64,000 bases of DNA from Amoebophrya sp. A120 (taxonomy: Eukaryota > Protista > Dinoflagellata): assembly GCA_905178155.1 (NCBI GenBank), contig CAJINV010000001.1, positions 15,934,142 to 15,998,141 of the forward strand, read 5' to 3'. Below the pieces are notes generated by a model. The model saw only the letters and a program-made list of their open reading frames with translations, did no database searches and was not told the origin of the DNA. Each line of letters opens with the position of its first letter. Positions within the stretch are counted from its first letter, which is position 1. This document shows, one piece after another, positions 1-30,290 of the stretch. The position numbers and the translations under genes are program-made.

Positions 1-3000
1 TGCTCCTCTTCCAGAGCGCGCTCGAGAAAGGAGTCCATGGTTGGGAAAGAAGAACTACTGTCGTCCTTCCCTTCCAACTTCCGCCGCTCCTCCGTCGCGA
101 GCTGCCGGGCGCGGACGAGCAAGCGCCGGCGGCGCCGGAACTGCATGCGCTGGCAGATCGAGTCGCCGGCGGACGCGCCTTTCGCAAATACGTGCTCGGA
201 AGCGCGCTTCGCCTCGGTTTCCCGGTGGCTGTGGTCCATCCGCTCCTGGTGCTCGCGCTTCTCGATGTCCAGCATCGGGGCGCGCTCCGCGCGAATCGCT
301 TGCGCCTCGGTTCCGGGCAGGTACAGAGCGTCCTTCGGAACGGTCGCCGCACCGCGCGACTGCTCGAAGAAGGCGTGCTCCATGCAGTCTGCGGTGACGC
401 AGCCGGATCCGCCGTGCATCAACTGCGAGCACATGTAATCCCCGGCCGCCATGCTCTCGCCCATCGGCATGCCGGGCTCGTGACCCGGCTCGACTTGCGC
501 GACTGCGAGCATCATCTCAGTACGGGACACCGTCGCGGACATTGGGATGTCGCTGTTCGGACTCATCTTCTGCATCATGATGTCCTTCACCTTGTCCAGC
601 AGCTCGCAGACCTCCACCGCCACGCCCGGCGGCCGCTGGGACTTCATGCAGTCCTCGTAGTACGATTTGATCTCGCCGAACGTCAAACTCGGGCTGGTCG
701 GGTCCCGACTCGCGTACCGCTTGATCTGGTCGAACACGTCCCCGCCCTTGTCCTCCGCCTTCGCGATCATGGGCATGATGTCCCCGGACGCGATCCCGAA
801 CGTGATCGCCTCCGCCAGGCTGTGCCCGCCGTACTTCTCTGCCGTTACAGCCGCGTGCGCACGGTCTTGGACGCCTGGGGAGGTCGACAACCGGGTCTGG
901 AGATGATGCAAGTGGGCCAGCAACCGCGGCTCCCGAACCTCCATCTCATTGAAGTGGCCTGGCTCTGAAAACGCGAGTTGCAGCTGGTGCAGCATCTGGT
1001 CGGCGATTGTTGGAAAACCACCACACGCGGTTTCCGGGCATTTTTCCGGACAGTAACAAACCTCGGTGAAGTGTTCGTACGCAAAGTTTTCGAGCTCCAT
1101 CATCAGGTCCGGGCCGAACGGGTTCGGCGCTTCGTGGCACACCTCATGCAGGACTTCGCCGGTGGTGTGGCGTCCACTCATCTCCTCTTCGTGCTCCTTG
1201 ATCGCGAAGTCCGGCATCACCATGCCCTCGAAGCACGCGTACCCCTCCGGGGTGTTCTGCATGAAGTTCGTCGCGCCTTCCGGCATGTTGGCCATGGACG
1301 CAGCGTAGGATGTGTCTGCGTACCCGTTGTCCGTTGGGCAGTGGACGGTACCCGCGTGGTGATCGTCCACCAAACTCGGGTGGTAGCCCATCACATCCGG
1401 CTCCCAGGGCATCGCGTTCATGCACTCGGTGACGGGGGCGTGGGTGGCCGAGTTTGCTTCGTAGGTGACGCAGATCTCCGTGTTGAAAGGGTCCGCGCTG
1501 GTGTTCATGGGCACGTGCGGACGCGGGTGCGAGTCCATGTAAAAGATGGGTTTGAACGTGCCGTCGCTGCCGTCGAACATCTGCTGGTCCATCACACTGT
1601 GGATCGTGACCGGGGTGGTTCGATTCCCCGCGAGCGGCGAAGCCAGCGGCATCGGGGTGGTGGCATCCGTGGAGAGCGGAACCGGCTTTGGGGAGCTGGT
1701 TTGAGCTTGCCAGGCGGTCGCTAAACCGTGAACGTAGGACGGTGGCGGCGAAGCTGGAGCACCCGTGGCAGCTGGGGAAGGCATTGCGACAACGCCGGCT
1801 GGAACCTGTTGCAAGTTGCGTTTGGATCATACATTAACGGCAATGCAAAAGCATTTGCATTGTTCGCTTGGGCAAAACAAAAATGGCATGAACACACAAT
1901 GGCCACAAACAGCAAAGTATTTGGCAATACCGGCGTTCCCAAGTTGTAGTATCCGAGCGGAGTCGAGTGCACACCGCCCTGCAGCTGTCGACGCAGCACC
2001 CGACGCTTGCTCTCGTGAAACTTATCCACGACGTCCAACTGCCTGAATCGGTCGCCGGTGCGGCCCGTCAGCTTCCGAATGCTCTTGTGGCGGTTTCCGA
2101 AGCCCTTGTGGAAGGTGTGCTCGAACTTCTCCAACTTGTCCGCGTCGCCCGCCTTCAGCATGCGGCGCATCAGCGACCCGCGGTGCGCCGTCTTCATCTG
2201 CGCCGCGTGGTGCAACTTCTTCACGTCGAACTTGGTCAACCGCCGGAAGTTCCCGCCGCTCAACCGCGCCTGCCGCAGGTTCCGTCGGCGCCGGTGCCGG
2301 CGCTGCACGCGCGCGCGGCGGGAATCGTGGCCGCCCTCCGGTTTGGTGCCGCCGCGCTCCTCCCACGCCTGCATGATTTCGTCCATGCACATGCGCTTGT
2401 TGTGCAGACACTCGCAACGCATCTCCGCCTGGTAGTCACAGGTGTTCACCAGCACGTCCGTACCCGAAGTGGGGTCCAACGCCAGAAAGTGGCACCCGCA
2501 CTCCCGCATGCAACCAGGACCCATCTTGTCAGCCTCCAGGTTGAACGCCAGCGTGTGGTCGTGATTCAAATCGAAGTTCTGCGTCGCCGGGTCCATGGGG
2601 AGTGCGCGCTCCTCCGGGGGCAGGCGCTTGCAGCTGGGCAGTTCGTGCATCATGCGCCCGATGAAACCGACAAAGGTGACCGGCGCTGGCGGCTCCGGGT
2701 CCATGCGGGGCATCGGCTCGCCGCCGGAAGTAACATCCCGGTCGGGATTCTGCATTTGGGCCGGGTTCACGTGCTCGGTGACGCAAATCCCGGTGTGGCA
2801 ACAGAGATACTCCGTGTCCGGAAGGTTCGGGGACGCACAGATGCTTTGGCTCAGTACCGGCCACAAACGGCGTCCCGTGCCGTCGTACATCGCTTCCGCG
2901 GTATCGACGACGTCGCCCTCTTCCAATCGCCGGCGCCTCTGCCGCGCGAGCTCAGTCGCTTGCTCCCGACGCAGCTGCTTCGCGTAGGACACGGGCTTCG

Positions 3001-6000
3001 TCTTGTGCGCAAAGAAGTCGATGCTGGGGTTCTGGTTCGCGGTCAGAGACCGTCCCTTCGGACGTTCGTTCACATGCTGTTGCTGCAGGCGACGCGGTTT
3101 GCTGGCCAAAAGCAAATTCTCCGTATCCGTTTCGCGCAGAGACCGCCGCGGACTCGCACCAGCCTGTGCAGCGGTGGGGAACTGTGAGTCCGGAATGCCG
3201 GCGGCGGCGCCGGGTTGCAAAGGCGGAACGGCTCCGGCGCAAGTGTATGGATCCAACACGTCACCCGCAGCGGGCGCAACACCACCAGCGGCCATCATGT
3301 GGCCACGTGTCGGGGGATCTGAAATTCAATTTATTGTTTTTTGCAAAATAATTCGCGCCAATTGTAAAAACATTGTGTGTTCGTCCGCATCCACAATGAC
3401 AGCCACATGCAATGAAAAATAACAGCAGCTTCTTCGAACGGAAGCGAAATAAAACCATTTGCAATACTTGGAGCTCCCGGCGGCATCACCGGATCAGCAG
3501 CAAGGGTCATCGGGCGGTCAGTAGGGTACGTCGTAACCGGAGTTTGGTACACACCGGTCGACGCGTCCACAGTGGCTCCCATGCACACCGGCACATTGAT
3601 GGCCATGGCCTGCATGTCCTGAAACTGCGCAGCGCACCAGTGCGGGTTCCCCTCCAAACGCTCGGCGTGGTTCAACACCGCGTCCCGCAAGTGGTCCGGC
3701 GTGCCCCCGATCCCCGGCGCCGTGGCCATGGCACACGGCGTGCACGCGACCGGCTCCATTCCCGGCATGTGCGTCGCGTGGTGCGCATCGTCCCCCGCCT
3801 CCAACAGCTCGCGGCGCTCGGACGGCGTCAAGTCCAGCTGCTTCAACAATCGGTGCATCGACCGGGTCTGCGCCGCCTCCAGCTCCTTGTTTTCTCGGCG
3901 GCAATGCTCGTGCAGTCTCTCGACTTCCCGCTCGTCCATGGGACGCGCCGCGGCCATGCGCGCCACCTCTTCCGCGTCTAACACCCGCACTTCATCCGGA
4001 TCGTGGCGAGCCACGTCGTGCAACCGGCGGTGAAAGCTGTCCACTTTGTCGAGCAGAGCACGGCGGTTACTAGTACCAAGCTCACCTTCCTCTTCAGCCA
4101 ACGCCCGCATGCGGCGGCGCTCGCCGATCTCGACCAAAGCGCGGCGTTGGGAGCTGAGTCTGCGCATCCCGGGCACGACTTGGCCGAGGGTTTCACCTTC
4201 CGTGTCGTAGCGGCTGAAGTCCTGCGACTCGGGCATCACACCCTCCTCCCGCCGCATCTCGTGCGACTGGTCATCGTGCATGAACTGCATCAAGTAGCCG
4301 TGCACGCCCATGGCAATCTCGAAGGGCTTTTCCGATTCCGCAAGCAGCTTCAAGATCATCTGTTTGGGAAGCGCAACCCGCTCATTCTGCATTTGGTTGA
4401 CAGCCCAATTTTTCAGCCCCGCAACGTCATCGGCCATCAAAAAGTTCATCACGTTGTCCCCGATCTGATCGAGCGAAACCAAATTTCTCTTCCCAGCGTG
4501 TGTCAGCGTCATCAGCTCGCGCATCTGTCGCGAGGTCGGCTTCACGCCGTACTCCTTCGAATACACGTGCAGGTTGTTAGAAACGATGTGGCTTTCGTCG
4601 TCCAGCAAGTACCGCAAAGCCCGATCCTGCTCGTCGTCCTCCGCGACCAGGCGGCGCCCGGTCTTCTCCAAAACAGCGTAGTTATCCTGAGCAGCTGCGT
4701 CCGAAATTTCCCCCAAGCGTCGGTTGACGCGCTGCAGCCTGCGGTGAGTCTCCTCCGCGTCGTCAGTTTCCGGGTTGAATTCGAGCAAGATACGCCGGCG
4801 ACGCAACTTTTCGCTCGCTTTCAGCCGCCGCGACAAGATCCAGCTCTCGTACTGCGCAGAGCCGAGCAACTTCCGCCGCTGCTCGCGCAATTTCCGCTCC
4901 TGCTTCACGATCTTCGCTTCCAACTTGCGGGCGCGGGGGACGTTCACAAGCTTCTCGAAGACGTGAAAGTGTAACGGGTCCGAATCGCTTTCCTTTACCA
5001 ATGCAGACTCCTCCAACACCAAGTTTCCGAACCGATCACGCGTCCGCCGGCCGAACGCGAGCGTCGCGCGGAGTAACCGCGCAACGGAGGACGCGCTAGC
5101 CCCCGCCTGGCCGTAGCGCTGCAAGAGTTCCCCCAGATTCATGTTCGCCTCTTTGGCTGACAAGCCCGAGCGCTCGTCCATGAACGGACTCTCGAAATCC
5201 CGGATCCAGCACATCACCTCCGCAACGGGCTCTTCCAAGCTCTTCTCGCGCATGTAGTAGGCCTTGCAGGTCGGGAGTCCCACGCCGGTGTTCTCCACCC
5301 GGGATTTCATCTGCACGTCCCCGGCCGCCTGCATCTCGGCCATCTTGTCAAACGGCGTCGGCACCCGGCCGGCGTTCTTGCACTCCTCGTTCGTTAAAAC
5401 GCCGTCAGACCCAGCCGCGCGGGCGCAGAACGCGCGCTTGTCCGCCATGTCCTTCAGCTTCATCAAGTCACGCTCGTATCAAGTGCAAAAATGTCTGGGT
5501 CTGGAAGGATACAACCTGTGATGCTAATACTAATTTTGGAATCTACATAAAATCTGTATTGCATGAACAGCAAAAGAGGTGTCATTTGCGCTACGCGGAG
5601 AGGGCGTCTCTCATGCGGTATTAGCATCAGAAAGCTCTCGCAAAATCTCTGACGCTAGTGCATGCATCACAGACCTCATGGGGTATGCAAAATCTGCATG
5701 ACAAACTCCTGCATTCTTCCAGACCCAGACACTTTTGCAATGCATAGCTCGGAGCCGCAGTCGATACCGTCCCCCACGTCCGGCGTCACGAACATGGGGC
5801 ACACGTCGCTTTCCGGGCGATTCCCGGCAATGTCCATGCGGTTGCGAGCTTCCGGATCCATCGACGCCTTTTCGTGGATCGCCTCGTACTCGCGGGCCGT
5901 GACGCGACCGTCACCGTCCTTGTCCAAACCGCGCGTCATGGCGGGGGCGGACTCACAGAGCGCGTCGTTACCTCGTCGTTTATTTTGACATCAACAGCGA

Positions 6001-8247
6001 AATTCAAAATCCAAAAGATCAAAAAGGGCAACAAAGCAAAAAGTTGTGACATCTGACTAATCTTGTTCGTTGCCAGGGCCTTCTCTGAATTTCTGAAAAA
6101 AGAAACCAAGAAACCTTCGCACAACGCCTCCGCCAATTTGTCCGCTTCGATCGAGGATCCGCAGTGGATGTTCGAAACCATGCAAACCCGGGCCGCGATC
6201 TCCTGCAGACGCCGCGGGTCGCCGGCAGTCCACCACTGCGGCTTTTCGTACAGCACCCGCGTCTTCCCCGTGTTTTCCTCCAATAACTGCCTCCGCCGAA
6301 AAGTCCCCGCGAGCAATTCCGCCTCCATCAGGCGCCGCTGCGTCGTCAGACCGTTTTCCATGGCGTTCGAAACGTAGGTCTGCACCGCACTGGACTGCAT
6401 CATCATCGCACCGGCCGCGTCGGCGAATTCCGGCGCCGCCTGGCCCTGGCCCCGCTTGATCTCCATCTCGTCCACGAGCGTGTCGTTGTTTTTGTCCCAC
6501 TCGCTAAACACCTGCGCGACCGTCTTGCCCTGCGGCTTGCTGGGCAGCATGTTGTAGAAGGCGACAAAAGTCGTGGCGTTGCACCGCCCGGAAGGGCAGT
6601 ACGACTGGAGTTCCGGAACTGCGCCCATCGCGACGGGGAACGGCTTCTGCGCCTCGCACTGGACAACGAGCGTCGGCATGGTTGGCACGCAGGCAGCTTT
6701 CATCGGCATGCTGCTGTTGAACAGCGGTGTTGGGACCGTACAAGACGGGTTGGCCACCATCCCCGCGCCGGGCGGAGGGCAGCCGTTGTGCGCCAGAAAC
6801 GTTTCGGTCACGATGTCCCGCATTCCGGAAAAACCGTCCACGAACTCCATGCGCTTCTCCGGGTACTGAAAGCACGGGTCCGTGAAATTCGCTTTGGGTT
6901 GTGGGGGCGCCACCAGGCGCAATTTCGGGCCTCCGCCCTCCTGCGAAAACTCGCGCACCGCACCCTCGGTCACCGAGTACTTGTCGGAGACGGTAGCGGC
7001 CCCAAAGTTGAACACCTTCTGTCCCATAGAGGTGGGGACCGTCAAAGTCTGCAGCCGTCCGGCGGATTTCGGGTTGATCGTGACCAGAACCTGGATCACC
7101 TCCCCGAGCCCCTTCAACGTGTTTGTGCACATCGCGGTGCCCATGGTCACCCCGTCGTCCTGCAGCGTCCCGGGTTCGGACTTCATCATGCTGTCGTCAT
7201 TGTTGTCTTCCGCGTGCAGTAAACGCTTCCCGTACACCGCCTGCTCTTCCAGCAACGCGAGTTGCCGCCGGCCGCTGTGGTCCGCACTCGCGGGTTTGTA
7301 GTCCTTCGCCGCCTCCGCCGCCGCGTACCCCATCGCGAAGTTCATTAGGGCCATGATCACGATGATCACCCCCAGTGCGACTAAGGCGATCTTCATGTAC
7401 CGGTTTTCCTTTTCCACCTTATAACCTGCTCAGGTGTTACAATCTCAAACGTTACAATAGAATCTGGAATTTGTGTTGCATGAAGAGCATGAGGAACGTG
7501 CAGAGTGTTGCGCTTTCCGCAATACAAATTTCGGCAGATTCTAGTGCGGTTTGGCACTCCAGAACTTGTCATGCGCAAACCTATGCGAGTTGGGTAGATC
7601 ATGCACTTCTTGCATCACAGAATCCAGATTCTATTGTAACGTTTGAGATTGTAACGTCTGAGCGGGTCATACACCTTCTCGCAGGCCGCCGCCGCGGCCG
7701 CGAGCTCGGTGACGGAAACTTGCCCGTTGCCGTCCACGTCCCACTTCTCCATGACCTTTTTCACCTGGTCCGGAAAGTCGTTGTAGCAGATTTCCGCGGA
7801 GTTCGTCTCTTTCGCGTTCTTCATGCGCACCATGGCGTCGACCCAGTGGGTCACTTCGTCCTTGTGCAACTCCCCGTCGCCGTCCTTGTCCATGCGCGCC
7901 AAGCCCTCAGTCAGCCACTCCGGGAGGTTCTCATCCCGCATCATCTGCACGTTGATGGTGTTTGCATCTTCCCCCGTCCACATCTCCAGCGTCTTCTTCG
8001 GACTACCCGCTGCCCCGGGGGTGGTTTCCAGCGAGGTCGGCATCATCTTCTTAGCCCCGCCGGAATTTTTTCTCATCTGCAGCGACATCCTGGTGTTCGC
8101 GCGGTTGTCCGCAATGACGCCCTCAGAGGTGGTTTCGGCGTTCCCGTCTTCTCCGGCCGAGGAGGGTGGGGCGTCCGTGTCCGGGTTCACTTGAAGGTCA
8201 ATCGCAGCGGTGTCTGCTGGTTTAGACTCTGTGAACATACCAAACAT
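1..8247 (-). CDS. Giant EF-hand-containing type-II membrane protein with RR(x)L-rich spacers (putative polyprotein); 3' end lies outside the window
   Basis: Exons 8247-7675, 7417-6115, 5971-5748, 5472-3468, 3318-1931 and 1805-<1 join in frame (~2,430 aa, no stop before base 1; the last exon is missing from the ORF track because it runs off the edge). N-terminal EF-hands DKDGDGELHKDE and DVDGNGQVSVTE, TM helix IALVALGVIIVIMALMNFAMGYAAA, further EF-like loops DKNNDTLVDEME and DKDGDGRVTARE. GC3-rich codon usage. Confidence 0.85.
1806..1930 (-). other. Canonical GT-AG intron (125 nt)
   Basis: CCG|GTATTGC...CAACAG|GTT, phase 0; AT-rich; removal switches into the frame that stays open to base 1. 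Confidence 0.8.
3319..3467 (-). other. Canonical GT-AG intron (149 nt)
   Basis: CCA A|GTATTGC...TTTCAG|AT CCC, phase 1; joins ORF 3331-5466 to ORF 1721-3298 in frame. Confidence 0.8.
5477..5746. mobile_element. Introner (MITE-like intron-generating element), family A; best intron 5473-5747 is CT...AG
   Basis: TIRs tatcaagtgcaaaaatgtctgggtctggaag and (rc) tatgcattgcaaaagtgtctgggtctggaag; 5-bp TSD gctcg at 5472-5476 and 5747-5751; removing the element plus one TSD gives in-frame ...CGSE-RDLMKLK. Confidence 0.9.
5972..6114 (-). other. Canonical GT-AG intron (143 nt)
   Basis: GAA G|GTTTC...GACGAG|GT AAC, phase 1; gives in-frame LCEG-NDALCESAPAMTRGLDKDGDG. Confidence 0.8.
7420..7671. mobile_element. 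Introner, family B (~50-bp TIR); intron 7418-7674 is GT...AG using the TSD
   Basis: TIR 7420-7470 tataacctgctcaggtgttacaatctcaaacgttacaatagaatctgga vs rc of 7621-7671, ~5 mismatches; TSD cacct at 7415-7419 and 7672-7676 (AGGTG on the coding strand); splicing gives ...ACEK-VEKENRYM in frame. Confidence 0.92.
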
Positions 8248-13234: not shown

Positions 13235-16200
13235 CTAATAAAAGGCTTTTTTCAGTCCACGGTGGGCGGTAGCGGCGTAATCGAGAACGACGTAATCTAG
13301 GTCGCCTTTTAGCTTCTCCAGCGCAGTGAACAACTGCCCCACGTCGCCATCTGCCCGGAAGTGGAAGCAGCCCTGCAAAAAAGCATCTGCCGGATCCTTC
13401 GCGTCCTCGGAAGTAAGCGCGCCGCTTTGTTTGTAATTACTCTGGCCAGGAGTTCCTTCCGCGGCAACATCAGCTCCGTCGTTTGAAGACTTCCGTCCCG
13501 GCTTCGAAAGATTCGCTTGCAGGAAGTCATTGATTTCTGTCATGATCTGTCCGGCCACCAACTGTCGCACCCAGTTCTCCAACTGTTCTTCGTTTTCCTG
13601 AAAGTTCTTTTGGGACACAGCGCTGCACTCCGCGATCACGTCGTCTTCCCGAGAAAATCCATTATCACAACTGTGACGCAGCGCAACGCGCCACGCGCTT
13701 GCCGACATCGTATTCTTCGTAGTCCCGAGCGCCTTTTGCTCGACCGTCATTTTCCAACTCCACTTCTTGAAAAGGTAAAGCAGCACCGGGTGCCTTGCTA
13801 AGGAGAGTTCCACGCTGGTGCCCTGTGGTCCTTTTTTGCCCGGTGTTCTGTGTTGAAAATTGCTGTTATTTTGTTGTAGAAGCGCGTCACATTCTTCCGT
13901 CCGAGAAGAACTCCGAGCCTTCTCTGTACAAAAATCATCTTCTGTGCCATCGAAATTCATAAGCCCGCTCCTTCCCCGCATGCCGGATGTCTTCGCCGTA
14001 GCCCGGACATTCGTGAAACCGCCCCTCTCGCAGCTGCTTCCGAAGAAACCCTTGCTCGCCGAGATCATTTTATTCCCGGAAGTTTTTTCTTCTTCGGCGA
14101 AAGGAGCAAAAACGCCAGAAATGCAGTCGACGTGGACGATTTCTGGGCGGATGGTGACGGAGACGCGGTACGATGGCACCATGTTCAAATAGGCCGGCGT
14201 TCCCAGGTGCGTCCACCTCCCACCATCCTGAATCGCCACTTGGCTGCACAAAAGCTCCGCCTCCTCGAGCAGATGCGTGGTGAGGAAAACGAACTTCGAC
14301 TTCGGGAGGTTGTTGTCGCTACTGTAGTCCACCTTGGTCCCAGCTGGCTGATCGGATCGCCGTCGCACCAGTGCCTGCTGTTGGTTCATCAAATAGTTGT
14401 TGTCCTGGTTTTCATCTTTTGCAAACAACCCACTGCCGTTCGCAGAGATGAATTCCTCCAGAAAGGCCCACATCTCGCGCCTGCCCACCGGGTCGATGCT
14501 CGTCGTTGGCTCGTCGAGGAGGAGAATCTGCGGATCGTCCAGAAGCGAGACACACACCATCACCTTTCGCTGCGCTCCACCGGAGAGCTCTGAGGGAAAA
14601 TAATTCCGGTACTTTTCCAGCTTCAGCTTTCGCAGCAAAAATCGAATCTCTTCGTCGGCCGACTTCTGCCCCGGGCTGTTGTTCTGCCAAGTGTCCATAC
14701 AGTTGCTCGCGACGTTATTTTTCGCGGTTCCTGTTGTACTACTACGCTCAGATGAACTACTTCTCCACTTCGTGGAACTTCTTTTCTGGTTCGCGCGCTT
14801 CAAACTCTGGAAGAGCGCGAGATTCTCGTAGACCGTCAAGTCTGGATACAGCACCGAGTTCCGTTGCGGGCAATACCCCGTCAAGCGTCGGATCTTTTTC
14901 AAATCCCGATCCTTGGTCGCGTCCAGGCCGAGCATGTGAATCTGTCCCGCGGAAACCGCCTCGCCCCCGAGGATCATCTTCAATAATGACGACTTCCCAC
15001 TGCCGTTCTTGCCTAACAGCCCGAAAACAGTTCCTTGCTGGGTGGAGTTCGCATTTGATCCGGGCCCAACACCACTCATACTACCTCGGTCGAGCCCGAG
15101 ATTGCACCGCTCATCCACCGTGAGGCCGTCGTCCTCGAGAAAGCTTTGAACACTGTTGCTTGCCGCAGCAGGCTCCGCTTCGGCGCTCCACGTGACACCT
15201 TTGACGGCGTGGACCAGCCACTCCTCCGTGGCGGTTCCGCGATAAATCTTGTGGACGCCATTGAGGCAAAGAAACTGTCGGGACAGGAAAGACGGAGCAG
15301 TTGGCTCCTGCGCGGACGGGCACATGGCATTGACTTCGTTGCTTGCAATCTTCTTTTTTCCATTCCCCCCGGCCGGACCACACCTCCCCCCTCGTGCCAA
15401 CTGTGCGTCAATTGAAGGAACTCCTGCAAGAACGGCGGTGTTGTTTACTTCTTCGTTATTTTCCACAAATTCGTGGCGCTTCTGGTTTGCGAGGGCCGCC
15501 TTCTCTCGGCGATCGCGCTCGAGAGCGCGATTGACTCTTTGCTGTTCCTTCACAACTAGGACGTCGACCTCGGGGTCAACGCGGTTCCGCGACAAGGCTT
15601 CCTTGACCGCTATCTTCCGTAGGTACTTCGTCATCACGCACCGCTCCACCTCGGCTAGCGCCCTTCTCCTCCGCAGACAGCAGCAACAGCAGGCCCCCAG
15701 GGTGCTCAGCAGGCGCAGCGCGAACTCCTCGGTCCAACACGCGGAAAGGCAAGAGCGCAGAAAACCTTTCGGTCTCGTGTCCTGCTTCATGCGCGAATAG
15801 CTGCTCGCTCCTGGAAAAGTTGTGGCTGCCGTTCCTTGATTCGCTCTACTGTGCCCTGATCGAGGCTTCGAAACGCGCGCACCCGAGTGCAACAGCTCAT
15901 CGTGATCGTCATGGTCGCTGCCGATGTTCTCATCTTGATGCTCCAGCCCGTTTTTAGCGAAGTCAGTGGAGCCTTTTCTCGACGCACCCTTGCTGTTGCT
16001 TTTTGTCTTCTTCGTACCACCTTCCTTTGCCTTTCCATCATTCAAATCCACACTCCCGTACAGAAACGCGCGCAAAAAACGCGTTTCCCGTGCGGGTGCG
16101 CTCAACCGTTGGTTGTCTCGGCCGCATTTCTGGATCAGCAATCGATTTTGTTCCCGCAACAGCTGCCAGATGGTCACAATCAGGATCACCAGGGTGAAGA

Positions 16201-19200
16201 ACAGGAAGTCAAACGAACCCAGGAAAAACCGCAGCAGCGCAGGCTTGTACAGAAGAACCTTGTCCAGCAGCGTTGGCTTTTCATCTCCTGCCGAAGTCAG
16301 TTGCGTAGTCTCTGTACCTGAAGAGCCTTTATTTCCTCTCTTTCCGCTTCCCGTCGAGGTTACCGTGACGGACCTTTTCAGCATCTGCTCCTCCTCTCGC
16401 ATCAGGGCGCCCTCGTCTACTGCAGCCATACCGGCGACGCGAATCTCCGGTAGCAGCGAGAACGGCGAACCCTCCTCGATTCGCCGTGCCTCGGCGAGAG
16501 CCGCAGCAGATCCTCTTTTGCTTTCTCGGTCCGACAGAGTTCTTGCGCTTCGGTTCCTCGACCGAAGCCCCCGCGGAAGAGTTGTTGCACTGACGCTTGT
16601 TCCAGTTTCTTGTTCACTCGCTCCGGCAGTGCTAGTGGCCTGCTCCCCAACAGTAGACACAGCGCCACCATCCGGATGTTGACCGGAATCTGCAGTCGTG
16701 CTCGCAACTTGCAGCCTCTGTGGGTCCTTGAACACCGGAGGTGGCGAAATGAGGTCGGAACTCACCAAGTAGCTCAGATCGATCATCGCCGTGAGCAAAG
16801 CCTTGTTTTCCACGTGGAGAATGTCCTTCAGCATGATCTTGTCGTACAACAGCCCGTGTGCCGCCTGACGCTGCATGGGAGACCGAAGCTGGGCTTTCGC
16901 CGCGAGGTCGAGGCTCTTCTTCATCTCGTCGGCGGCTTTGCGCTCTTCAACTGCTTGTCTGGCCGCTTCCGCTCGTGCTTGCGCACTGTCACGGTTTCGC
17001 GGGGCTTCGTCACCGTTTCCAGATGTTGGGAGAAAGCCGGGCTGATTTCGGGAATTTTGGTGGGCACGCGTGAAAGCAGCAACAACAAAAGACGAAAACA
17101 TCAAAACAAAGTACTAGGCGAGTCTATACACTTCTTGAAAACATGAACAATGTGGCTTAAAAATACCGACGTAGAGCCCGTTGTTCCCGCTCCTGCCGGC
17201 CAGTCGGGCTGATCGCCGCCGTCCGCATCCCCTGTGGAGCTTGCCGCTCGCCCACGCCCCAGTACCCAATCCAGCAGAAACCGGGGCAAGGACCTGATCC
17301 AGAAAGACTTCACCGCCCGCCAACAGGACCACAGAAATCCCTCCATCGACACCGCACTTGCACCGTGGTCGTGCTGAAAAATGACCGAGGAGAGCAAATA
17401 CGCATCCCGGTCCACCTGGAGCAAGTCCCGCAGCCGCTCCGGCTCCTTCTCCTGCTCCGGCAACGGGGTCGCGTCCATCAACTTCAGCCGATTTCGTGCC
17501 CAGTTGGAGAAGTCTTCCTCGAACCTCTGCCGAAACTGTTTGGGGCGGTACCGCACGAGCACCTGGCGCTTGAAGTCCTCCCAGTGGAACTGCTTCACAT
17601 CGAAATCAAACCAATTCCAGGCTGCGGCCCACAGCTTCTTCCCTTTGTCCTTCCCGTACTTCTTGCACATCTCCTCCTTCGTGAAAAAGTTTCCGTTCGG
17701 CCCCCGGCGCCGCAGCGCCGCCTCCCACACCTTGGGCCAGTCCTGCCGGTAGTGCGCCATGAACTCCTCTTTCGACTCCAAAGGCGAGATCTTGATCACC
17801 TGTCGGGCGTCCAGAGCAACCGGCCGGCTCTTACCGATTTTGCGGAACTTCACGCGGAGTTTGGTCGATTTGTCCGCGTTCGTCGGCCGCACCCAGTACT
17901 GGAAATCTAGTTCCCGCACCGGGTCCGTTTCCCCGTAGTCCAACCGGTTCAACTCCACGGTGCCCTTCTCCGTCCGGACGGTGACGTCTTCGGCGAGCAA
18001 CACGCCGTTTTGGTTCCCTAAATAGGGCGAAATACGGGTCGTCTTGTCGTTCACGAAGGGGAGTTTGTTCCACGCCTCCTGGGCTTCCTCCTGTTCAAAC
18101 CGTAAATGCGCGGTCAGGTGCTCAATGAACTCCTCGTGGGTTAACAGTTGACGTCTCCGGTCCGCGATGTTCGGGAACCGCGGGTGTTGCACGTCCAACG
18201 GCTTCCGCTCCGTGTCGGTTTGCAACTGCATCTGCCGGATTTCCGCTTGATTCAGCGTGTTCAGGTAGAACCGCATGCCGCACCCAAACGCCAGCTCGTA
18301 GATCTGCTCCGAAGTCTTCTGCTGCACGCTGAACGCCCGCGCCCCTTGCTGCCCGTCCCACACGGAGGGCTCGGGGTAAAGCCAGCTCTTCGTCCACTCG
18401 AAGGCGTAGGTCAGCATCACCTGGGCTTGCAGCCAGCGGAGCGTCACGTGGTCGCGGAAGGTTGGCTCGCTGCGTTGCCTTGCTGTAGTTCCTGGACTAG
18501 CACCGGAAACGGCATCCAAAAGCGCTGCAGTTTGGGGCACCTGGCCATCGGAGCTGCCGGTTGTGCCGGGGGTGTCACGACCTCTGCGAATCCCACGGAT
18601 GTCTGGTGCAGTTGTTCCTGCAGGTCGTGTTGGGCTTGTCATTCCTGCCAGCGCATTTCCACCGCTCCGCGCACGTCCCGTGCGGATCGACGTTGTTCCG
18701 GCGCTATCTCCGGCCCCTGCCGCATCGGGGCTACTATTACTTTCCTGCTGCTGCCCACCGGGAGTCGTTTCTCGGATGGGCGACAACGCACCATAGGACG
18801 ACAACCCGAACCAGTTCTGCATGTACCGCGAGAAATTGAACCCGGCGTTGCCCGCCCGTGCCGTCGAATCTGTTGCGCCAGCATGATCCCGCCGCGTTTG
18901 GCGGCCTGCAACACCCCCTTCGTCGCCGCTGTTTTCCGCACTGTCTACGGCGCTCCCGTCGAGCTCGTCCGTGCTCTCACTCAAAAACTGCGGGTTTTCC
19001 TCCCCTTGCGCCGCCTGGAGAATGTCGAACGCGCGGTTGGCTTCGTCGATCCACTCCTCAGCGGTGGCGTTATCCAAATCGTCGTTCTCTCCGTCCTCGT
19101 CGTCTCCGAACACAAACGCGTTCCGCCGCGCAAAGCTGTCACTGTTACCAGTCGGTGTCGCCTGCCGCAATCCGGCCGCGAACCGATTGTGGTTTCGGTC

Positions 19201-22200
19201 GTCCGCACGCTGCGCCCTCGCCCGCGCCAGTGCCCACTCGTACAGCAGCTTGCGCTGCGTGCTCGCGTCGTGCCGCCACAGCATGGAGAGTTGCTCCGCG
19301 CGCACACCCATCTCCGTCGCCAGCTGCTCGATCTGGCCCGGGTGCATGTCTTCGAAATTGCGGGTCGACTGCTCGCGCAAAATCTGCTCCTGCTCGACGA
19401 CGACGTTGTCCATCAGGTAATTCGCGACCTTCCGCTGCGCCTTCTCGATCTGCCGGTCCTGTCGTCGTTTTTGGATCTCCCGCGCGACGTGGCGCTCGCG
19501 CGCTTGCGCCGCCGGGGTGCTGGGGCCGCTCGGCTGCAGCACGACGTTGTGCACGAAAATGGTCACGAACAGATGGGCCAGAGACGCAATGGGGACGAAC
19601 GCGTAGAACACCCCGCACGCCACCCGCGCAGCCAACTGCTTCAGATACGCCACGCCCCAAAACCCGTCCTCTCGGACGGTCCTCTCCAGGGCGATTTCCG
19701 GGGGCTCCGGCTCCGCAAGCATCATGGCGGATTTTTCCTCCTCGGGAGTGAGTTTCACGACGCGCTCCCGCTGGTGGTCCATCTCGACGTACTCGTCCAG
19801 CAAATCGTCGTGCGAGAAGAACTCCTGCGGCATTCCGTCGTCGTGCACGATCCAGTTTGTCGCGGTGACGTCCGTGTAAAATCCCCCCTCGTCATCCCAC
19901 AGCAGATCAGGCCGGGACGTGGGTGTCGCAGGCATGTCCTCCGAGAACTGGTTCCTCACACTCGGCGGTCGCTGCGGCGTCCCACTTGCACTACTTGTTC
20001 CACCCGGCGTGTCCGGGCCCCCGCCTCCGCGCGTGATCAGAGTGCTTGTCCCTGCCGCAGTTCTGGTGAGACTCCGTGTCGGGGCCGCAGGAGTGGCCCT
20101 TCCAGATGTTGTCCCCTTGTTGAGAATTGCCTCCGGTCGGCTCACACCAATTTTCAGACGCACGCTGCGCCTCTGCTCCTCGGATTGGTACTGCACGTGG
20201 ACGGATTTCATGAACGCCTGGTAATACTCCTCCCGCGTTTTGAAATCGCCTCCGTAGAAGGTCGCCTCGCCCATCACCCCCAACGCGTAAATCAAATCCC
20301 CCTTGCGTAAGCGTCGCGGATCCGGTATCGACTCCCCCTCGTATAGGGAGAGCGGATTGCTGTTCATCGAGGAATTATTACCCGTCGGTCTCATGGGCTG
20401 CTGCCGAATCTCCAATTCACTTCCATCCGCGGCGAGCATCACATCGGGAACGACCGCTGTCGTGTCACCTCCACCTCCAGCGGCTGCAACTCTGTGTCCT
20501 TGCTGCAATTGCTGCTGGCGCTCCCGACGGAGTTCCTCGCGGCTCACGTGCCAGAGGTTTTTCGTCACGCGCACATACTGCTGCTGAAAGTCGAGCGCTT
20601 GGCGATTTTTCAGTAAAGTCAAATCCTGGAGTGGAATGCTGAGCTCCTTCATCGTGTCCTGTGTCTTCGGCAAGGGCTGCATTGCCTCAACAAACTCGGT
20701 GCGCTTGAGTTCGCGGGTTACAGCCAGAGCGGACTTTGGGTCTAGCGTGTTGAAAAACGGCACAATGCCTTGGACGGAAAGAAACACCGAGCAGGTCCCA
20801 ATCACAACAATCACCAGGAGGGCAAAAAGCGACATGTCATAGGCGTACTGCGCTTTCGAGTTGGTGTGTTTCGTGTTCTCCTGCTCAAAGTCGTCGTTGT
20901 GTTCCCCTGCAGATATTTCGCTTGCTTGTAAAGCTGTTGATGAATCGCTGCACAAAGCTTGTTCGTTTTCCAATTCATTTGCCGTTCCAAAGGCCACGGA
21001 AGAAGTAGTCTTCCCTCGTTTGTTCTTCCCGCCATTCAATAGTTTCCTGTTTTGCCACCACGCACTGCAGCGTTTCAGACACTCCTGCGGCCACCACGTC
21101 CCGTCGCGGACCGCCCGCCGCTCCTGCGCCAGAGCCTCCTGGCGGACAGGCGCTCGATAGAAGGTCACGGTGAGGAGCAGAAGCCAGAGGTAAATGGAAA
21201 CGAAAAACACGTTGTTATCCTTCAGATCGAAAAAGCAACTCTGCCGCAAGAGTTGTAGAAAGGGCAAACAGTCCGCGATACCGCCGGCGAGCAGAAATTT
21301 GAAAACGAAAAACAAGCAGAGAAAAACGACAATCGCGTCGGCTAGAAAGTGCGAGGCCCAGTAAGCCTTACCGCTGATGCCGTTCATGAACAGAAACTCC
21401 TTCACGCCGCGCCCATGCTCCAGTTTCACGTTGCGGATCAAAGCCGTCGGGATTTTCAGCAAAACCAAAACAAAAATCAGAAACTGGCTGCACAGGTCCA
21501 CCCCGAGTAAAAAAGCGCCGCGCAATTGGTCGTTGGTCAACACCGGAAAGTACACTTTTTTCTTCAGACCCGACTGCATTATCGAGTCGGATAACGCCAG
21601 TCCCCGCCTGTTCCCGCCGAGCCCGAACGAGGCCGCCAACGGCGAGGCTCCGTGCCGGTTGCGGAGGTGGTAGGGAGGAGAATTGCTGTGCTTACCCCCG
21701 TAGCCCTGGGATGGACCGTTGAAGGACGAATCCAGGTCGATGGCAAAGGGGGACACTTTTTGATTCAACAATTGGTGCGCGTTGCCAAACATGTCGAACC
21801 CGACGTCACTCCAGCCGCCGAAGCGATGGAGGAAAAAAAAGGTCGCCAGGCCGAACAAAAGCACCGCCGCAGCGTCGTGATGCAACACGAACGCCGTCGC
21901 CCGCCGCTTCCGCCGATCCTTCCCGAACACGGGGACAAAGAAACTGGAGAAGACCGTCCAAGCGAGCAACAACCAGCCGTAGAGCAACCGGGCGTAAAAC
22001 TTCAAGCAGCCACAGACGCTCGGACCTGCCTTCCGGGTATTTTTTCCAGCATCGTAGCTGTGGCTCTTCGCAAGCGCATGTTCCGCGCTCACCGGTTTAG
22101 AGAAACGAAAAATGTTGGCGTCGCGCTGCATCCGCGACAGCGTGAACAGGGCAAAAAACTGCAGGAAGAAACGGCGCATAGCTGAGAACCATTCTTTCTC

Positions 22201-25200
22201 TGCTTTCGACAATTTCAACCACCCGCTGCGTTTTAATCGGTCGAGTAAAGGAATTAGCGGTCTATTTGCCTCAGCCGGGAGTTCCAATGCCCCTTGCGAA
22301 GAAGATGTAAGTCCTGGATCCAGTCCTGGCTCGCCAGAAGGAAGTGGCTGCTGGTGTTTCAAGGCACTTTTCCTACCCGTGGTTCTAGGAGTCTTCATCG
22401 CAGCGCCCGCGACTTCCTGCAGTTTACTCGCATCTTCCAGTGCTAGTTCCTCCGTGGATGGCCCGTTTGACTTCGACAGGTCGATGTCAACCAGGTTATG
22501 CGCATTCTCCAGTGCAGCAGCTGTCTTTGGCACGGGCGAGATAGAAGAGGACGAATTGCCGTCGGGCGAAAGGCGGTTGGACTCAGACGTTCTACCGGTG
22601 TGCCTCTGTTTAGAGGCAAAAGAGCCGACTAGATCATCATCCAGCCGATGGTCCACGAGATCATGCGAACTTGCCACCATGGCATCGTAGTCGAATTCTG
22701 CTTCGAACGCGTCGCCAAAGCCGAAGCTTACCACATCATCTCGCTGCTCGAACCCCAGCAGGCGGAACTCTGACCGCGCGTAGGTCAGTTCCGCACCCGA
22801 AGCGACTTTGAGAAAAATCTCTTCGAGGTTCGAGGTGTTCAACGCAAAAGAATGAATCACCGGCACGGCAGAGACGAAGACTTTGCGGCTGCGCATATTG
22901 TGGTGGTCTCCGCTGGATTTTTTGTTGCCCTTTTGCTGTCCTGTGTTGACCTCCTCGTCGACCAACAGGTCCAGGTTCACAAGGTTCACGCTTTCCAATG
23001 CCCCTGCAAATCTCTTCACCTCGTTCAACACCTCCGCCAGAATTTTGCCGTCCTTGACAAGCGGAAATTTCACGCAACAGCGGTTGCCCTGCGTTTCGCT
23101 GCGGATGTAGGTGCTCCACCAAGGCTGTTCCTCCTTTGCAGCAGCACTGGGAGTTGCATAACCTCCTCCACCAGCGGTGCTTTTTGCTAAACAAACCTCT
23201 GTGGCACTTGCGTTCGTCCTGGACGCTGCCGCATTCTCCTGCAAGACGTCCTCTCGAATCCATTGCTGCCAGAAGTCGCGGATTTCCTTGTCGCTTTGCT
23301 CTTTCGCGGGCTGATGTTTCTGCTGATTGGAAGAAGAATGGTTTCCGCTTCCAAGCACGGCACCAATGCGGTTTGCTACCAGCCGCTCCAGTTCTTTGGC
23401 AACTTTCTGCGTGATCAGTCCCCGCCTCTCGCCAATGCTGTTTAATTGCCGCTTCACGTGCTCTACTGGAGCATTCAATACGTCCTCGGTAGAATCCAGT
23501 ACATCATCACCTCTCGCTTTATTCATCGCACTCGTCCTCTTGTACCGCACGGGGACCCGCATCACCGATCGGCCGAGCGCTGCCAGATGCTGCTGCTGGG
23601 ATGATTTTCGGTCCTTGTCGAAACCGTCCTTATTTCCATCTCCGCTCGTACCGACGTCCTGTCCAGTAATCTTTTCCATGTGGTCGACCGCACCGAAGCC
23701 GATGTACTCCTGCAACAGAATGCGGGCGTCGTCAGACAATTGGTCCACATCCGTAGCTTCCTCGAGCACGCGCACCTCGTCTTCTCCGCCCGGCGTACTC
23801 TGCATCCTACTGGCGTAGGAACTCTCGTCGCAGCTGCTGTTTTTCTTCTCCAAACGGCGGAGGTTGGCCGCAGTTAGTTTGCTTTTATTCGAACTGCTAT
23901 TGTTGTTCGGGCTGCTGGGGCTGTTCGTCGTGCCAGTCGTTCTGCCATTATCCCCTGCCGCGACGAGACCCGTCGCACGACTACACTCGTCGTCGATATC
24001 CGAAACGTGCATATCGTCCTCCTGGTTCAAAATGTTGTCACTGCTTTCTTGCGTTTGTTGCTTACGCAGCCTGTTGCTGTTTCTCCTGCCATCCTGATCG
24101 CACAGAGGTCGCTCATGATCTACTTGATCACGCTGCTTGTTAATACAATTCTTTTTTCCAGGAGATGCCCGGACCGCTAATTGCTGCATCCTCCACAGCA
24201 GTCGTTTCTCGCGCAGCTGGACCTCCAGAACAAAACCGGTGCCGAAAATCGTTTTCAAGTACTCCACGCTGCCCCAGGTTTTCACTACCCCGTCCTTCAA
24301 GATCGCAACCTTGTCTGCGACCACCTCAGCTTCCTCCATCAAGTGTGTGGTGAAAAGGATTACTCTGCCAACCTTTCTTTTCCTCAGAAACTTCTGGAAA
24401 GTGCGGCGATTTTGCGGATCCATCCCCGCAGTGGGCTCGTCCAGAATGACGAGCTTCGCATCGCCGAGAAAAGCCGAGGCGCAGCAGATCACGCGGCGCC
24501 ATCCCCCGGACAACTCGCTGCAGCGCTTCTTCGCAACATGCGCGGGCACCTCCAAGTCGCGCAGGAGCGCGTCCGTCTCTGCCTGGACGGCGGCTTCCAG
24601 ATACTCTGCGAAGGTCGGGACGTAGGCGGCTAGTTGCTGCTGGTGCTTCTCAGACAGCACGCTGTCAAGCAGCGGACCACCTTCCTCGGTCATAAGCAGA
24701 CTTGTCGCACTAGAAGCTCCATCGTCATAGCGCAGCTCGCTAATCCCGACCGGCTTCTCGATGTAGTTTTTATCCTTGCTACTCATCAACATGTCTTGCG
24801 CCGACAGGGAGTCGTCGACTTTGGTGGACCCTGAGGACTTTTTCAGCAGCGCCGGATTCAACGGGGAAGTCTCGCGATTCGGCAGTTTGTTCGTGAGTCC
24901 ACTGGAAACATTTCCGGTCCTGGAGCGAAATGTGAACTTTTCGAAAGCCCTTACCGACGCGGAACCCGCACTCAACCTGCCGGCGCGCATTTTCTCCCAC
25001 TCTTCGTAGAGAAACTCCACAGAGCGAAGCTTGGCAATGAAAGTCAGTTGCTCCCGCACGGTGAGCTCGGAGAACAGATTGTCCGTTTGCTCACAGTACG
25101 TCGTGCTCGCGGAGGGACTGGCTTTCGAACTGCTTTTGCTCCCGTCGGTGAAGGAACTACTTCCCACTTTCCGAAAAAAATCCGCAGCCGGGAGGTCGAA

Positions 25201-28200: not shown

Positions 28201-30290
28201 TGGTGGTCGTGTCCGCCCTAGTTCTACCTGCGAAGTAGACGGGTTTGCAGGACCAGTCGCAGCGGAGGTTTCATCAGCACCGCGATTTTCTCCCGCGCTT
28301 GTAGTTTCCTTTGCCGCATCTATTTTGTTCCGAATATTGCTTTGCAACTGTGTCAACCCAAACTCATACGTCCGATCGCGGCGGACCGGCTCACGGGAAG
28401 ACGCTCCGCACGCTGCTGGGGACAGGCGGAAGTAGTCCCATATTTGCCAGAATTTTCGCTGCGGGAAATCCAGCAATGCCAGCTCCTGCTCGCGCAAAAA
28501 TGGTCGCACATCCAGGCTCTGGGATTGCGGCAGCACACCGAAGGACAGAGCGCCGGGGGCCAGGCGCAACGCGTCCAGCTCCGACACGCCTACCTCTATT
28601 CGTGACATCAAGTGCGCCGACTCCTTCAAGTGCTGGGCCGGCATCTCGCGCGGCATGCGCCAAAACTTCTCGCCCGGGGCGAGGTTTCCCTCGCCCGGGT
28701 GATGGTACCCGCCACTACTGCTCCCGGAAGTAGATAATTGGCACGTACAAACCGCTTGGTAGACATTGATGAGCACGACAATGACCGAACAGCCGTATGA
28801 AATGCAAAAGTGTCTGGGTCTGGATCTGGAAGAGTCGTGCTGTTTTTGCATGAGACAGAAGGGCTGGCATGGAAGCTCTAACGTCACAGGTTTCGAGAAG
28901 CTTCCGCAATGCCGAATCCGCATGACAGCTCCCCCATTTTGGTGACAGAAAGTGCAAGTGGGCAGCTTTTGCTACCTATGCATGAGAGATTTTCCATTTT
29001 CTGTGTTCCGAAATGCGCATCGCAAGTTTGCAATCATCCAGACCCAGACGCTTTTGCATTAGATAAGCCGATCCCGAAGACAACCGCCCCGAGAAACGGG
29101 AAGGACATCAGCCAATGCACGGCATACAGAAACCGCACCAGCAAACCCCGACTGCGGTACTTACTCCGGACCCGGCTGCTCCGCGTCAATTGCGCCACCA
29201 GAAACGCCTTTTGCCCCTGCTGCTGCTCACCGTACACCAGACCCCCGACCATCTCCGCGTAGTACAGAGCGCTCAGAGTGAGTAGCAGCTCGAACCAGTG
29301 TCGGCCTAGAAACGGAAAGAGCACGTGGAACAACGCATCCTTCACGTACTCCAGCATGTTGACGTTCGCAAACAACCGCGTGGATAATACCCGTTTCTCC
29401 AGAGCCGCCAGTTTCTCGAACGAGGTCAGCGGAGGGTGCTGCGGGTCGTGCAGAGACCCGGTCGACGAGGACCCGCCGTTACCGTGAGAAGCGTGCCCGT
29501 ACAGACTGCGGCTGATCGACTGCTCATTGGAAGCCGCGTTCCCGACCAGCCAAACGGGAAGGTACTCATTCAGCTGCAGCGCGACGCTGAAGAAAGACGC
29601 GTGCTGAAAGTTTGCCTTAGAGTATTGCTTCTCCGAAGCTGACGCGGAGGAACCACCTGCATCTGGACGCTGCTGATCACGTTGCGCTTCATTCCGATAC
29701 TCGAGGAACAAGTGCCCCGCCGTGTCCCGCTCGGCAAAAGGAAATGTTTGTCGGAGATCCGTCCAGACCTGAAAGAGGCCTAGGTCGTCATCTTTCTCCT
29801 GCGCATGCTCGACTCCCGATTTGGGGGACGCCTCGAAATCGCCAGAGCGGTGCGTTTCTGGATTTTTCAGAGTGCAGTAATGTTTGAAGCACTCTCGGTC
29901 GTACGAATGCAGAAGAACTGGCAAAGAAGAAGTCACAGATGAAATAAAGCAAAAGAAATCGCGACGCACTAATGTTCAGCATATCTTTCCAAGGGAACAA
30001 ACCAAAAGAGAACGACAAACCGCACCATGCGTAGTACCAAACGGATCGAGCTTTGGCTTTCCACCAAGCGGTGCAGGCAGGTCTCGCAGAACGTCGCGTG
30101 AGAACAGGTGGTCGATGCATCGGACACCAAACAGAAACGCAACCAGCACGCCGAGCAGGAGAAAGGGAACAGATACTCGACGAATGAACGAGTCATCAAA
30201 CAGAGTTTTGAAGTTTTTCCAAAGCAAAACCTCCAACACCGCAACCTTCCCACCTTGCAAAACGCACGAAGGCGTCGTTCGGGACCTCAT
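13235..30290 (-). CDS. ABCA: Full-size ABC transporter, subfamily A (~5,500 aa)
   Basis: Exons ~30290-30026, 29917-29066, 28790-17131 and 17068-13235 (16,611 nt, in frame). N-terminal ABCA motif VLLWKN + TM. NBD1: GENGAGKTT (~25530), LSGGWRR, VILDEPTAGMD, FTTH; R1 motif TSNLEEIFLKV. TMD2 with GISGKAYWASHFLAD. NBD2: GKNGSGKSS (~15000), LSGGAQRK, LLLDEPTTSID, LTTH; C-terminal DYAATAHRGLKKAF. Confidence 0.9.
17069..17130 (-). other. Short intron in the ABCA gene, boundaries uncertain (possibly non-canonical)
   Basis: Frame change between ORF 17101-28923 and ORF 13235-17104 over a T-rich stretch; AAG|TG...CACG|CGT restores the frame, but other GT-AG solutions exist. Confidence 0.5.
28796..29065. 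mobile_element. Introner, family A; non-canonical intron in the ABCA gene
   Basis: TIRs tatgaaatgcaaaagtgtctgggtctggat and (rc) tatctaatgcaaaagcgtctgggtctggat; TSD agccg at 28791-28795 and 29066-29070; removal gives in-frame VVFGIG-CSVIVVL within a TM helix; same length (270 bp) and TIR as the element at 5477. Confidence 0.92.
29918..30025 (-). other. GT-AG intron (108 nt) in the ABCA gene
   Basis: CAT G|GTGCGG...TTGCCAG|TT CTT, phase 1; removes the in-frame stop that ends ORF 29976-30290. Confidence 0.7.

Follow-up and report, generated by a model that had tools for sequence, protein, structure and literature searches.

A 64,000-nucleotide stretch of Amoebophrya genomic DNA (contig CAJINV010000001.1, positions 15,934,142 to 15,998,141; hereafter the window) begins with a long gene that raises the question of whether one membrane-anchored protein serves as the precursor of several secreted parts. 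A first-pass annotation, made from the sequence without database searches, had read this gene as encoding a Ca2+-sensing, membrane-anchored polyprotein with clustered RR(x)L sites. The gene lies on the minus strand and runs in six exons from position 8247 to the window edge. Five long open reading frames (ORFs) in shifting frames and one short ORF are joined across five low-GC gaps to give 7,298 nucleotides, or 2,432 codons free of stops. The window ends before the C-terminus is reached, and an orthologue of strain A120 continues for about 130 residues more. As annotated, the product of more than 2,400 residues has two N-terminal EF-hands (Pfam EF-hand_1, E=6.5e-9) followed by one transmembrane (TM) helix. 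The two EF-hand loops stand 50 residues apart, with a His at position 9 of the first, and the helix at residue 201 is the only hydrophobic helix in the protein.

The protein contains 13 RRL and 16 RRxL words (15 when x is not Leu), which give 26 sites after overlaps are merged; 13 of the 26 contain RRL and the other 13 are RRxL only. The annotated figure of about 13 for each word was correct for RRL and too low for RRxL, and all of the motif blocks that had been named are present, the fifth reaching 2872. Shuffling predicts only 1.9 RRL or RRxL words when applied globally and 3.6-4.1 when applied locally over 30-100 residues, and whichever scheme was used, none of 2,000 shuffles reached the observed 28. 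Read in reverse, as LRR and LxRR, the words occur three times each and are not enriched under local shuffles. The sites are also clustered, as 16 of the 25 gaps are 30 residues or shorter against 7.5 expected (0 of 5,000 shuffles). Both the enrichment and the clustering that had been claimed therefore hold against shuffled sequence, and chance or composition was rejected as the source of the sites. All 26 sites are C-terminal to the helix, and the 25 that follow the first are spread across 2,160 residues. Eleven other long ORFs of the window were found to hold seven such words in 11,516 residues.

The closest relatives of this protein are Amoebophrya proteins. A search with exon 2 led to an Amoebophrya protein of 64% identity (a cluster of Ameob2 and AT5.2 models). 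In word-index searches, P0001 was the sole match to exon 2, exon 5 gave no match, and alignment A2 returned only P0004, P0001 and five unrelated multi-EF-hand proteins. A HMMER scan with the Amoebophrya exon-2 match found 130 clusters, most of which match only the anchor made up of the EF-hand pair and the helix (the EF-EF-TM anchor). A smaller set, referred to here as the giants, resembles the whole protein. The A120 orthologue (CAD7961469.1; 2,591 residues) has 22 sites and, over 2,397 aligned residues, shares 62% identity with the window's model. Five further giants of 2,308-3,331 residues have 27-31 sites each against 0.9-2.3 expected (0 of 200 shuffles), and a partial relative with 15 sites has an accession prefix that is used for Hematodinium in a paper. 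The assignment of the giant family to the Syndiniales rests on these two genera, Hematodinium being recognised by the prefix.

Homology among the giants extends past the anchor. With basic runs masked, the 12-Cys domain is linked among four giants by BLASTP, and a five-giant profile recovers the window's protein at E=2.5e-25, with none of 21 shuffled or reversed controls recovered. In alignment A2, site clusters occupy matching places across homologues that are about 20-25% identical. In the A120 orthologue, 19 of the 26 sites are retained in the strict form and 25 have an RxL nearby, against 24 of 110 control Leu positions, and sites often switch class among RRL, RRxL and RKL between the two proteins. 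The motifs are thus conserved in the orthologue, one of the observations on which the polyprotein claim had been made to depend; another is the side of the membrane on which they lie.

This second point was addressed with 85 proteins that have a near-complete anchor, drawn from 132 profile hits after the exclusion of fragments and six duplicates. They contain five sites in 12,425 residues before the helix and 400 in 61,508 residues after it. In all seven full-length giants, the window's protein included, the residues immediately N-terminal to the helix have a net charge of +1 to +3 and those that follow it one of -1 to +1, and Cys and N-glycosylation sequons lie nearly all on its C-terminal side. 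Other members of the anchor family carry ShK, LNR, PAN, Spherulin4 or DUF1800/DUF1501 domains after the helix. These domains are extracellular or exported. Taken together, the charge, the placement of Cys and sequons, the sidedness of the sites and the cargo domains predict a type II protein with its motif region in the lumen rather than in the cytosol.

The motif itself was characterised by pooling counts over the seven giants, which are related, so that the counts are not independent. RRL (128 against 6.5-17 expected), RRxL (102 against 6-15) and RKL (36 against 5-8) are enriched about 5- to 20-fold, and KxL occurs at chance level (57 against 56-58). When the RRL, RRxL and RKL sites are masked, lone RxL is enriched (101 against 41; 0 of 300 shuffles) and lone RxxL is not (33 against 47). 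Glu stands at Leu+2 in 23 of 128 RRL (11 expected), 22 of 64 RRxL (5.5 expected) and 8 of 36 RKL words (2.6 expected). Glu, Asp or Gln at this place (41 of 128 RRL, 25 expected; 28 of 64 RRxL, 12 expected) is a statistical preference and not a property of every site, and Pro never follows Leu directly. The enrichment of RxL but not RxxL, the Glu at Leu+2 and the absence of Pro after Leu mark the unit as R-x-L with the Leu as its reference point, in most cases preceded by one more Arg.

It is very improbable that these words are ordinary dibasic sites of the furin or Kex2 type in which the Leu is incidental. RR and RxRR are indeed enriched (75 RxRR against 6-25), and PCSK5-type convertases are among the expressed genes of Amoebophrya. 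However, RR is depleted where neither of the two following residues is Leu or Arg (31 against 63-84), which together with the enrichment of lone RxL led to the rejection of plain dibasic sites, and the downstream preferences align on Leu and not on RR.

The processing of secretory precursors at RxL is already known, most closely from diatoms. Mature silaffins are described as being without their RRIL and RRNL ends, and RXL bounds the repeats of other precursors, so that a general endopeptidase signal was proposed (PMC4557024); silicanin-1 has an RRL pro-region, for which the protease is given as unknown (PMC5525289). In diatom RXL precursors (Sil1p, silacidins, cingulins, frustulins and silicanin-1), as here, RRIL, RRNL and RRL words bound the units of one secretory precursor (PMC4557024, PMC5525289, PMC9650480), and silicanin-1 is likewise membrane-anchored and Cys-rich. 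The diatom precursors as described have a cleavable signal peptide, are short or consist of near-identical repeats, and serve biosilica, whereas the window's family has a predicted cytosolic EF-hand pair with a signal anchor, 22-31 sites and non-repetitive domains of 150-580 residues. The window's protein has neither a cleavable N-terminal signal peptide nor the near-identical repeat units of the silaffin type; self-BLASTP (E<=1e-3) and a DNA repeat scan detected no internal repeats. No sequence match was found between the window's family and the diatom precursors. Amoebophrya is not known to silicify.

The apicomplexan export signals share the same core. Toxoplasma ASP5 cuts after RRL, with RKL at 35-40% and REL uncut (PMC4764566). 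Its substrates GRA16, GRA19 and MYR1, which carry the Toxoplasma export element (TEXEL), resemble the present sites in having RRL followed by xE-type residues and are likewise secretory proteins of an alveolate, and MYR1 is cut internally into two parts (PMC4764566). The substrates described in that paper nevertheless have a single cut site, and none is a 26-site anchored polyprotein. The strict TEXEL label was rejected because ASP5 requires RRL, which only 13 of the 26 window sites provide. The core R-x-L of the Plasmodium export element (PEXEL), cut by plasmepsin V, is matched by the giants together with its enrichment of Glu, Asp or Gln at Leu+2. PEXEL is, however, one site near the N-terminus that licenses export (PMC4764566), in contrast to the many internal sites with an extra upstream Arg of the window's protein, in which the first site, 23 residues past the helix, is followed by 25 more. 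The TEXEL label of the first-pass annotation fits only half of the sites, the motif being the RxL that also occurs in the diatom precursors and in the RxLx consensus of the protease treated next. The family nevertheless probably operates in the manner of these known precursors.

Another candidate enzyme type is site-1 protease (S1P; SBT6.1), which cuts RRIL, RRLR, RRAL and RRLM sites in the Golgi with the consensus RxxL/RxLx (PMC13082318). These words resemble those of the window, and all window sites fit RxLx, but lone RxxL is unenriched here and Glu or Asp often follows the Leu. Type II membrane precursors are typical S1P substrates. The Leu-anchored xE preference slightly favours a pepsin like plasmepsin V or ASP5 over S1P, although the sequence alone cannot place the scissile bond.

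Cutting at every R[RK]x?L site would yield 6-12 segments of at least 100 residues and 22-30 short segments per giant. In all seven, the segments of at least 100 residues together carry a net charge of -75 to -181 and nearly all Cys, and the short segments together a net charge of +33 to +83. EF-hand-like loops, which the first-pass annotation had missed, occur after the helix in the window's protein at residue 642 (Pfam E=0.013-0.036, which does not reach the curated cut-off) and at residue 499 (recognised by eye only), and one to four are predicted in eight of nine giants. Of the polyprotein claim, it is borne out that the sites lie only after the helix, are conserved and bound acidic, Cys-rich domains; that they are cleaved is, on the evidence of the sequence, probable.

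The observed architecture, motif enrichment, clustering, conservation and family suggest the following mechanism. The signal anchor would insert the chain into the secretory pathway with the N-terminus inside and the C-terminus outside, which would place the C-terminal 2,200 residues in the lumen. A resident lumenal protease, for which diatoms, Toxoplasma and plants provide precedents, would cut at R-x-L, most likely right after the Leu in the manner of a plasmepsin V/ASP5-like pepsin and otherwise one residue later in the manner of an S1P-type subtilase. The first cut, 23 residues past the helix, would part the cargo from the EF-EF-TM anchor, and the anchor may act as a reusable handle for sorting or retention and may respond to cytosolic Ca2+. 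Cuts in the clusters would drop short basic spacers and release about six acidic, Cys-rich subunits, some bearing EF loops, in equimolar amounts. Loss of the basic spacers could unmask the acidic domains, which might then condense with Ca2+ into a matrix of the dense-core or extrusome type or into a coat, either of which the spore would need; this is the weakest step. For the whole chain of events, from a giant membrane-anchored RxL precursor to acidic Cys-rich subunits that form a secreted structure, the balance is about even.

If the sites are cleaved, a structural-matrix role for the products is slightly favoured, the analogues being the acidic, Ca2+-binding granule proteins found in ciliates and the trichocysts of the Amoebophrya sporont. 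Trichocysts are described as being made in the sporont (PMC9478091). In Tetrahymena, Grl1p is an acidic Ca2+-binding granule protein (PMC2133959), and extrusome proprotein processing involves an aspartyl protease (PMC2133959, PMC4142616). Processing of the Grl and trichocyst matrix protein (TMP) proproteins of Tetrahymena and Paramecium gives acidic Ca2+-binding products, and the products predicted here are acidic as well. No similarity to Grl or TMP proteins was found by Pfam, Protein Data Bank (PDB) or fold searches, the last with models of low confidence. Grl and TMP precursors are soluble proteins of about 40 kDa without RxL clusters or a membrane anchor.

Structure prediction for the regions between clusters, which had been proposed as a check, gave little to decide on. 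AlphaFold2 models of exon 2 and exon 5 had low confidence (predicted local distance difference test scores of 57 and 53). Foldseek returned nothing at E<=0.001 for these models, whose low confidence means that new folds are not implied, and the best VIA-align scores (Z of 5.6 and 5.9) were at background level. The lumenal domains have no Pfam match besides EF-hands, and the PDB sequence search gave calmodulin-like matches only. These results bear on the possibility that the RxL-cut products are mixed secreted factors, such as adhesins, enzymes, host-directed effectors and perhaps bioactive short peptides, instead of a matrix. The motif evidence serves this explanation equally well; TEXEL and PEXEL mark exported apicomplexan proteins (PMC4764566), the named giants come from parasites (Amoebophrya, and Hematodinium by accession prefix), and other family members carry enzyme-like or ligand-binding cargo. 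On the other hand, no enzyme or known effector domain appeared in the Pfam, PDB sequence or fold searches, the order of domains is kept over long distances, unlike that of fast-evolving effectors, and the anchor occurs in clusters in which haptophytes, diatoms and chlorophytes are the commonest named phyla. Mixed factors are therefore considered unlikely, if worth keeping in view.

Several observations weigh against the matrix precursor proposed here. Clusters 5 and 6 are predicted as helices in the low-confidence model, and Arg and Glu four places apart also suit a salt bridge within a helix. Clustering is not significant in one of the seven giants (P0016, p=0.27). Residue-level conservation in the A120 orthologue is modestly above background (Arg kept at 23 of 26 motif positions against 103 of 136 elsewhere, Leu at 22 of 26 against 97 of 140), and some spacers are conserved in distant homologues of alignment A2 beyond the need of a throw-away linker, a point that would also suit mixed factors. 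The first EF-hand loop is one residue short in several homologues, which makes Ca2+ sensing by the anchor weaker than first put. The contig depth on the exons is low in the runs examined, unlike what would be expected for a bulk structural protein, contig depth being a poor measure. The Amoebophrya expression table in the supplements of PMC6176090, which covers regulated, KEGG-annotated genes only, lists pepsin-family labels (Enzyme Commission number 3.4.23) and PCSK5-type labels but no entry named 'site-1' or 'aspartyl protease'.

The helical predictions and the Arg/Glu spacing would be in line with a long surface or lumenal protein that is uncut, or cut once near the anchor, with the RR(x)L-xE blocks acting as charged helical spacers or as repeated sorting or binding motifs. 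Many sites are merely 4-15 residues apart, which exceeds what the release of domains needs. Helix chemistry alone, however, hardly accounts for the order RRL instead of LRR, for Arg instead of Lys in first place or for the rarity of RR with no Leu after it. A Gly/Ser-rich, unstructured context surrounds the first site and most of those in the shorter members of the family, and such words are cut away as diatom proteins mature (PMC4557024). An uncut protein is thus improbable.

A broader proposal, offered tentatively and more doubtful than not, is that PEXEL, TEXEL and diatom RXL processing all go back to one RxL protease of ancient origin, which cuts a single syndinian precursor 22-31 times and discards basic chaperone peptides, that a fixed set of new acidic subunits, delivered in equal amounts, builds a whole secreted organelle or spore structure, and that the Ca2+-responsive EF-EF-TM anchor, which would retain the chain in the secretory pathway, is a general algal sorting module that anchors its cargo before it is cut. 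The Syndiniales are parasites that abound in the sea, where they bring algal blooms to an end and also infect crustaceans; their secreted machinery is almost uncharted. The family provides a tangible, conserved candidate whose cut sites are predicted exactly, and would, if this broader proposal is true, give the first molecular handle on the attachment or invasion apparatus of Amoebophrya and Hematodinium. It also ties the PEXEL, TEXEL and diatom RXL signals to an anchor found across algae, and each protein provides 20-30 natural candidate substrates for identifying the RXL protease.

Searches of the open-access literature found neither this protein nor an EF-TM-RxL family described, and the giant family, the EF-EF-TM anchor and a non-repetitive precursor with 22-31 sites were not found there either. 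The A120 gene id is absent from the supplements searched (five files of PMC9478091 and ten of PMC6176090). The anchor is a wider algal and protist module. Atlas look-alikes of the A25 anchor (scores of 0.91-0.95, without alignment) belong to eukaryotic clusters, with haptophytes, diatoms and chlorophytes as the commonest named phyla; the anchor also occurs in free-living algae and is therefore no mark of parasite invasion in particular. Among the 50 non-giant members with at least 170 residues after the anchor, 49 have an R[RK]x?L word within 190 residues past it, against 8 expected. The beta-rich region after the anchor had been suspected to be common to the giants and the shorter members, but a profile of these 50 failed to detect it in the giants (best E 2.3), so that only the anchor is shown to be common to both. 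In an anchor tree made by a quick method on 130 columns, all giants fall in one clade of 23 rows (Shimodaira-Hasegawa-like approximate likelihood ratio test 97) that also includes non-giant members, and little else is resolved.

Several family members deserve mention in their own right. P0022, P0031 and about 25 relatives (800-1,340 residues) share this anchor and make up another subfamily that is undescribed; they have 3-7 RR(x)L sites and mostly no Pfam domain besides EF-hands. A named member comes from Gymnodinium smaydae, a free-living dinoflagellate. In P0024, P0070, P0036, P0108 and P0124 the anchor is fused to DUF1800+DUF1501, DUF7495/PAN, ShK, Spherulin4 or LNR domains, and with such varied fusions it behaves as a mobile secretory module. 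The public models of P0001-P0003 (Amoebophrya Ameob2 and AT5.2) end at 1,080-1,118 residues with three different C-termini, and one transcript contig for them is 5,614 nucleotides long; they are likely truncated or frameshifted models of a full-length giant. P0008 (Amoebophrya A25, CAD7976772.1, partial) has a more distant anchor, 45% identical to that of P0001, with its own RRL site, and as a second anchor type it indicates that Amoebophrya probably has anchor paralogues.

The exons, introns and domains of the gene are listed in the table below. Contigs of run X3, presumably of RNA, skip introns 4 and 5 exactly. Introns 1-3 are bridged by no listed contig and were placed by reading frame, alignment with the Amoebophrya homologue and element ends; the ends of intron 3 are non-canonical whichever cut is chosen. 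An artefact reading of the gene was rejected on the strength of the spliced contigs and the orthologues. Inverted arms with 5-nucleotide direct repeats, as found in introns 1 and 3, are the anatomy described for Amoebophrya introners, although the arms are longer here than the 8-20 nucleotides given there (PMC7789003). The summed contig depth on these two elements is hundreds to more than 1,000, against single or double digits on the exons, and raw reads of run X12 match only the intron-3 element and so carry no information on the gene itself. Also in run X3, short pieces of a single depth (75.6, counted as one contig) lie collinear along nearly the whole gene (432-7967). They match at the 85% setting and are gone at 96%, and represent a more abundant diverged homologue, either a paralogue or from another strain, in that run.

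Table. Exons, introns, domains and site clusters of the gene at the window edge, in the direction of translation.
Feature	Position	Strand	Remarks
Exon 1	7675..8247	-	start codon, low-complexity N-terminus, EF-hand pair (predicted cytosolic)
EF-hand loop 1, residues 120-131	7855..7890	-	one residue shorter in 5 of 12 anchors displayed
EF-hand loop 2, residues 170-181	7705..7740	-	canonical
Intron 1, 257 nucleotides	7418..7674	-	multicopy introner-type element; 73-nucleotide inverted arms (88%), 5-nucleotide direct repeat at ends
Exon 2	6115..7417	-	TM helix, first site, domain 1, site cluster 2
Single TM helix, about residues 201-222	7325..7390	-	predicted signal anchor, N-terminus cytosolic
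First RRxL site, about 23 residues past helix	7259..7270	-	RR invariant in 9 aligned giant homologues
Domain 1, residues 245-551	6338..7258	-	beta-rich part, 8 Cys, EF-like loop at residue 499
Site cluster 2 (3 sites)	6206..6337	-	
Intron 2, 143 nucleotides, GT..AG	5972..6114	-	inferred from frame and homologue alignment; X7 contig piece stops at 5969
Exon 3	5747..5971	-	part of domain 2; EF-like loop at residue 642 (5924-5889)
Intron 3, 275 nucleotides	5472..5746	-	multicopy introner-type element; 37-nucleotide inverted arms (84%), 5-nucleotide direct repeat, non-canonical splice ends
Exon 4	3468..5471	-	rest of domain 2, site clusters 3 and 4, domains 3 and 4
Site cluster 3 (6 RR(x)L sites and RKL words)	4645..4929	-	basic
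Site cluster 4 (5 sites)	3805..4164	-	
Intron 4, 149 nucleotides, GT..AG	3319..3467	-	spliced out in X3 contig
Exon 5	1931..3318	-	site cluster 5, 12-Cys domain, site cluster 6
Site cluster 5 (4 sites)	2864..3148	-	
12-Cys domain, residues 1521-1700	2324..2863	-	best-conserved lumenal domain across giant homologues
Site cluster 6 (5 sites)	1982..2287	-	basic, predicted helical
Intron 5, 125 nucleotides, GT..AG	1806..1930	-	spliced out in X3 contig
Exon 6	1..1805, open at window edge	-	most of 579-residue acidic domain (15 Cys); site cluster 7
Site cluster 7	131-75	-	in exon 6

Elsewhere in the window, the minus strand at 13235-28971 holds an ABC transporter gene of great length (ABCA-like, two ABC_tran regions), whose two ORFs together exceed 5,000 codons and contain long inserts of low complexity. 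A 2,061-residue ORF at 33762-39947 (minus strand) has a stretch like a signal peptide and internal duplications rich in Pro, Ser and Ala, with no Pfam match. At 45117-51317 (minus strand), a multi-domain voltage-gated cation channel was found, with four Ion_trans stretches in the two ORFs scanned and Cys-rich extracellular loops. An ORF at 52710-53618 (minus strand) appears to resemble the C-terminal part of a non-LTR (long terminal repeat) retroelement protein. Every Pfam-matching ORF of the window and every ORF longer than 750 residues is on the minus strand, a bias that resembles the unidirectional gene clusters described for Amoebophrya.

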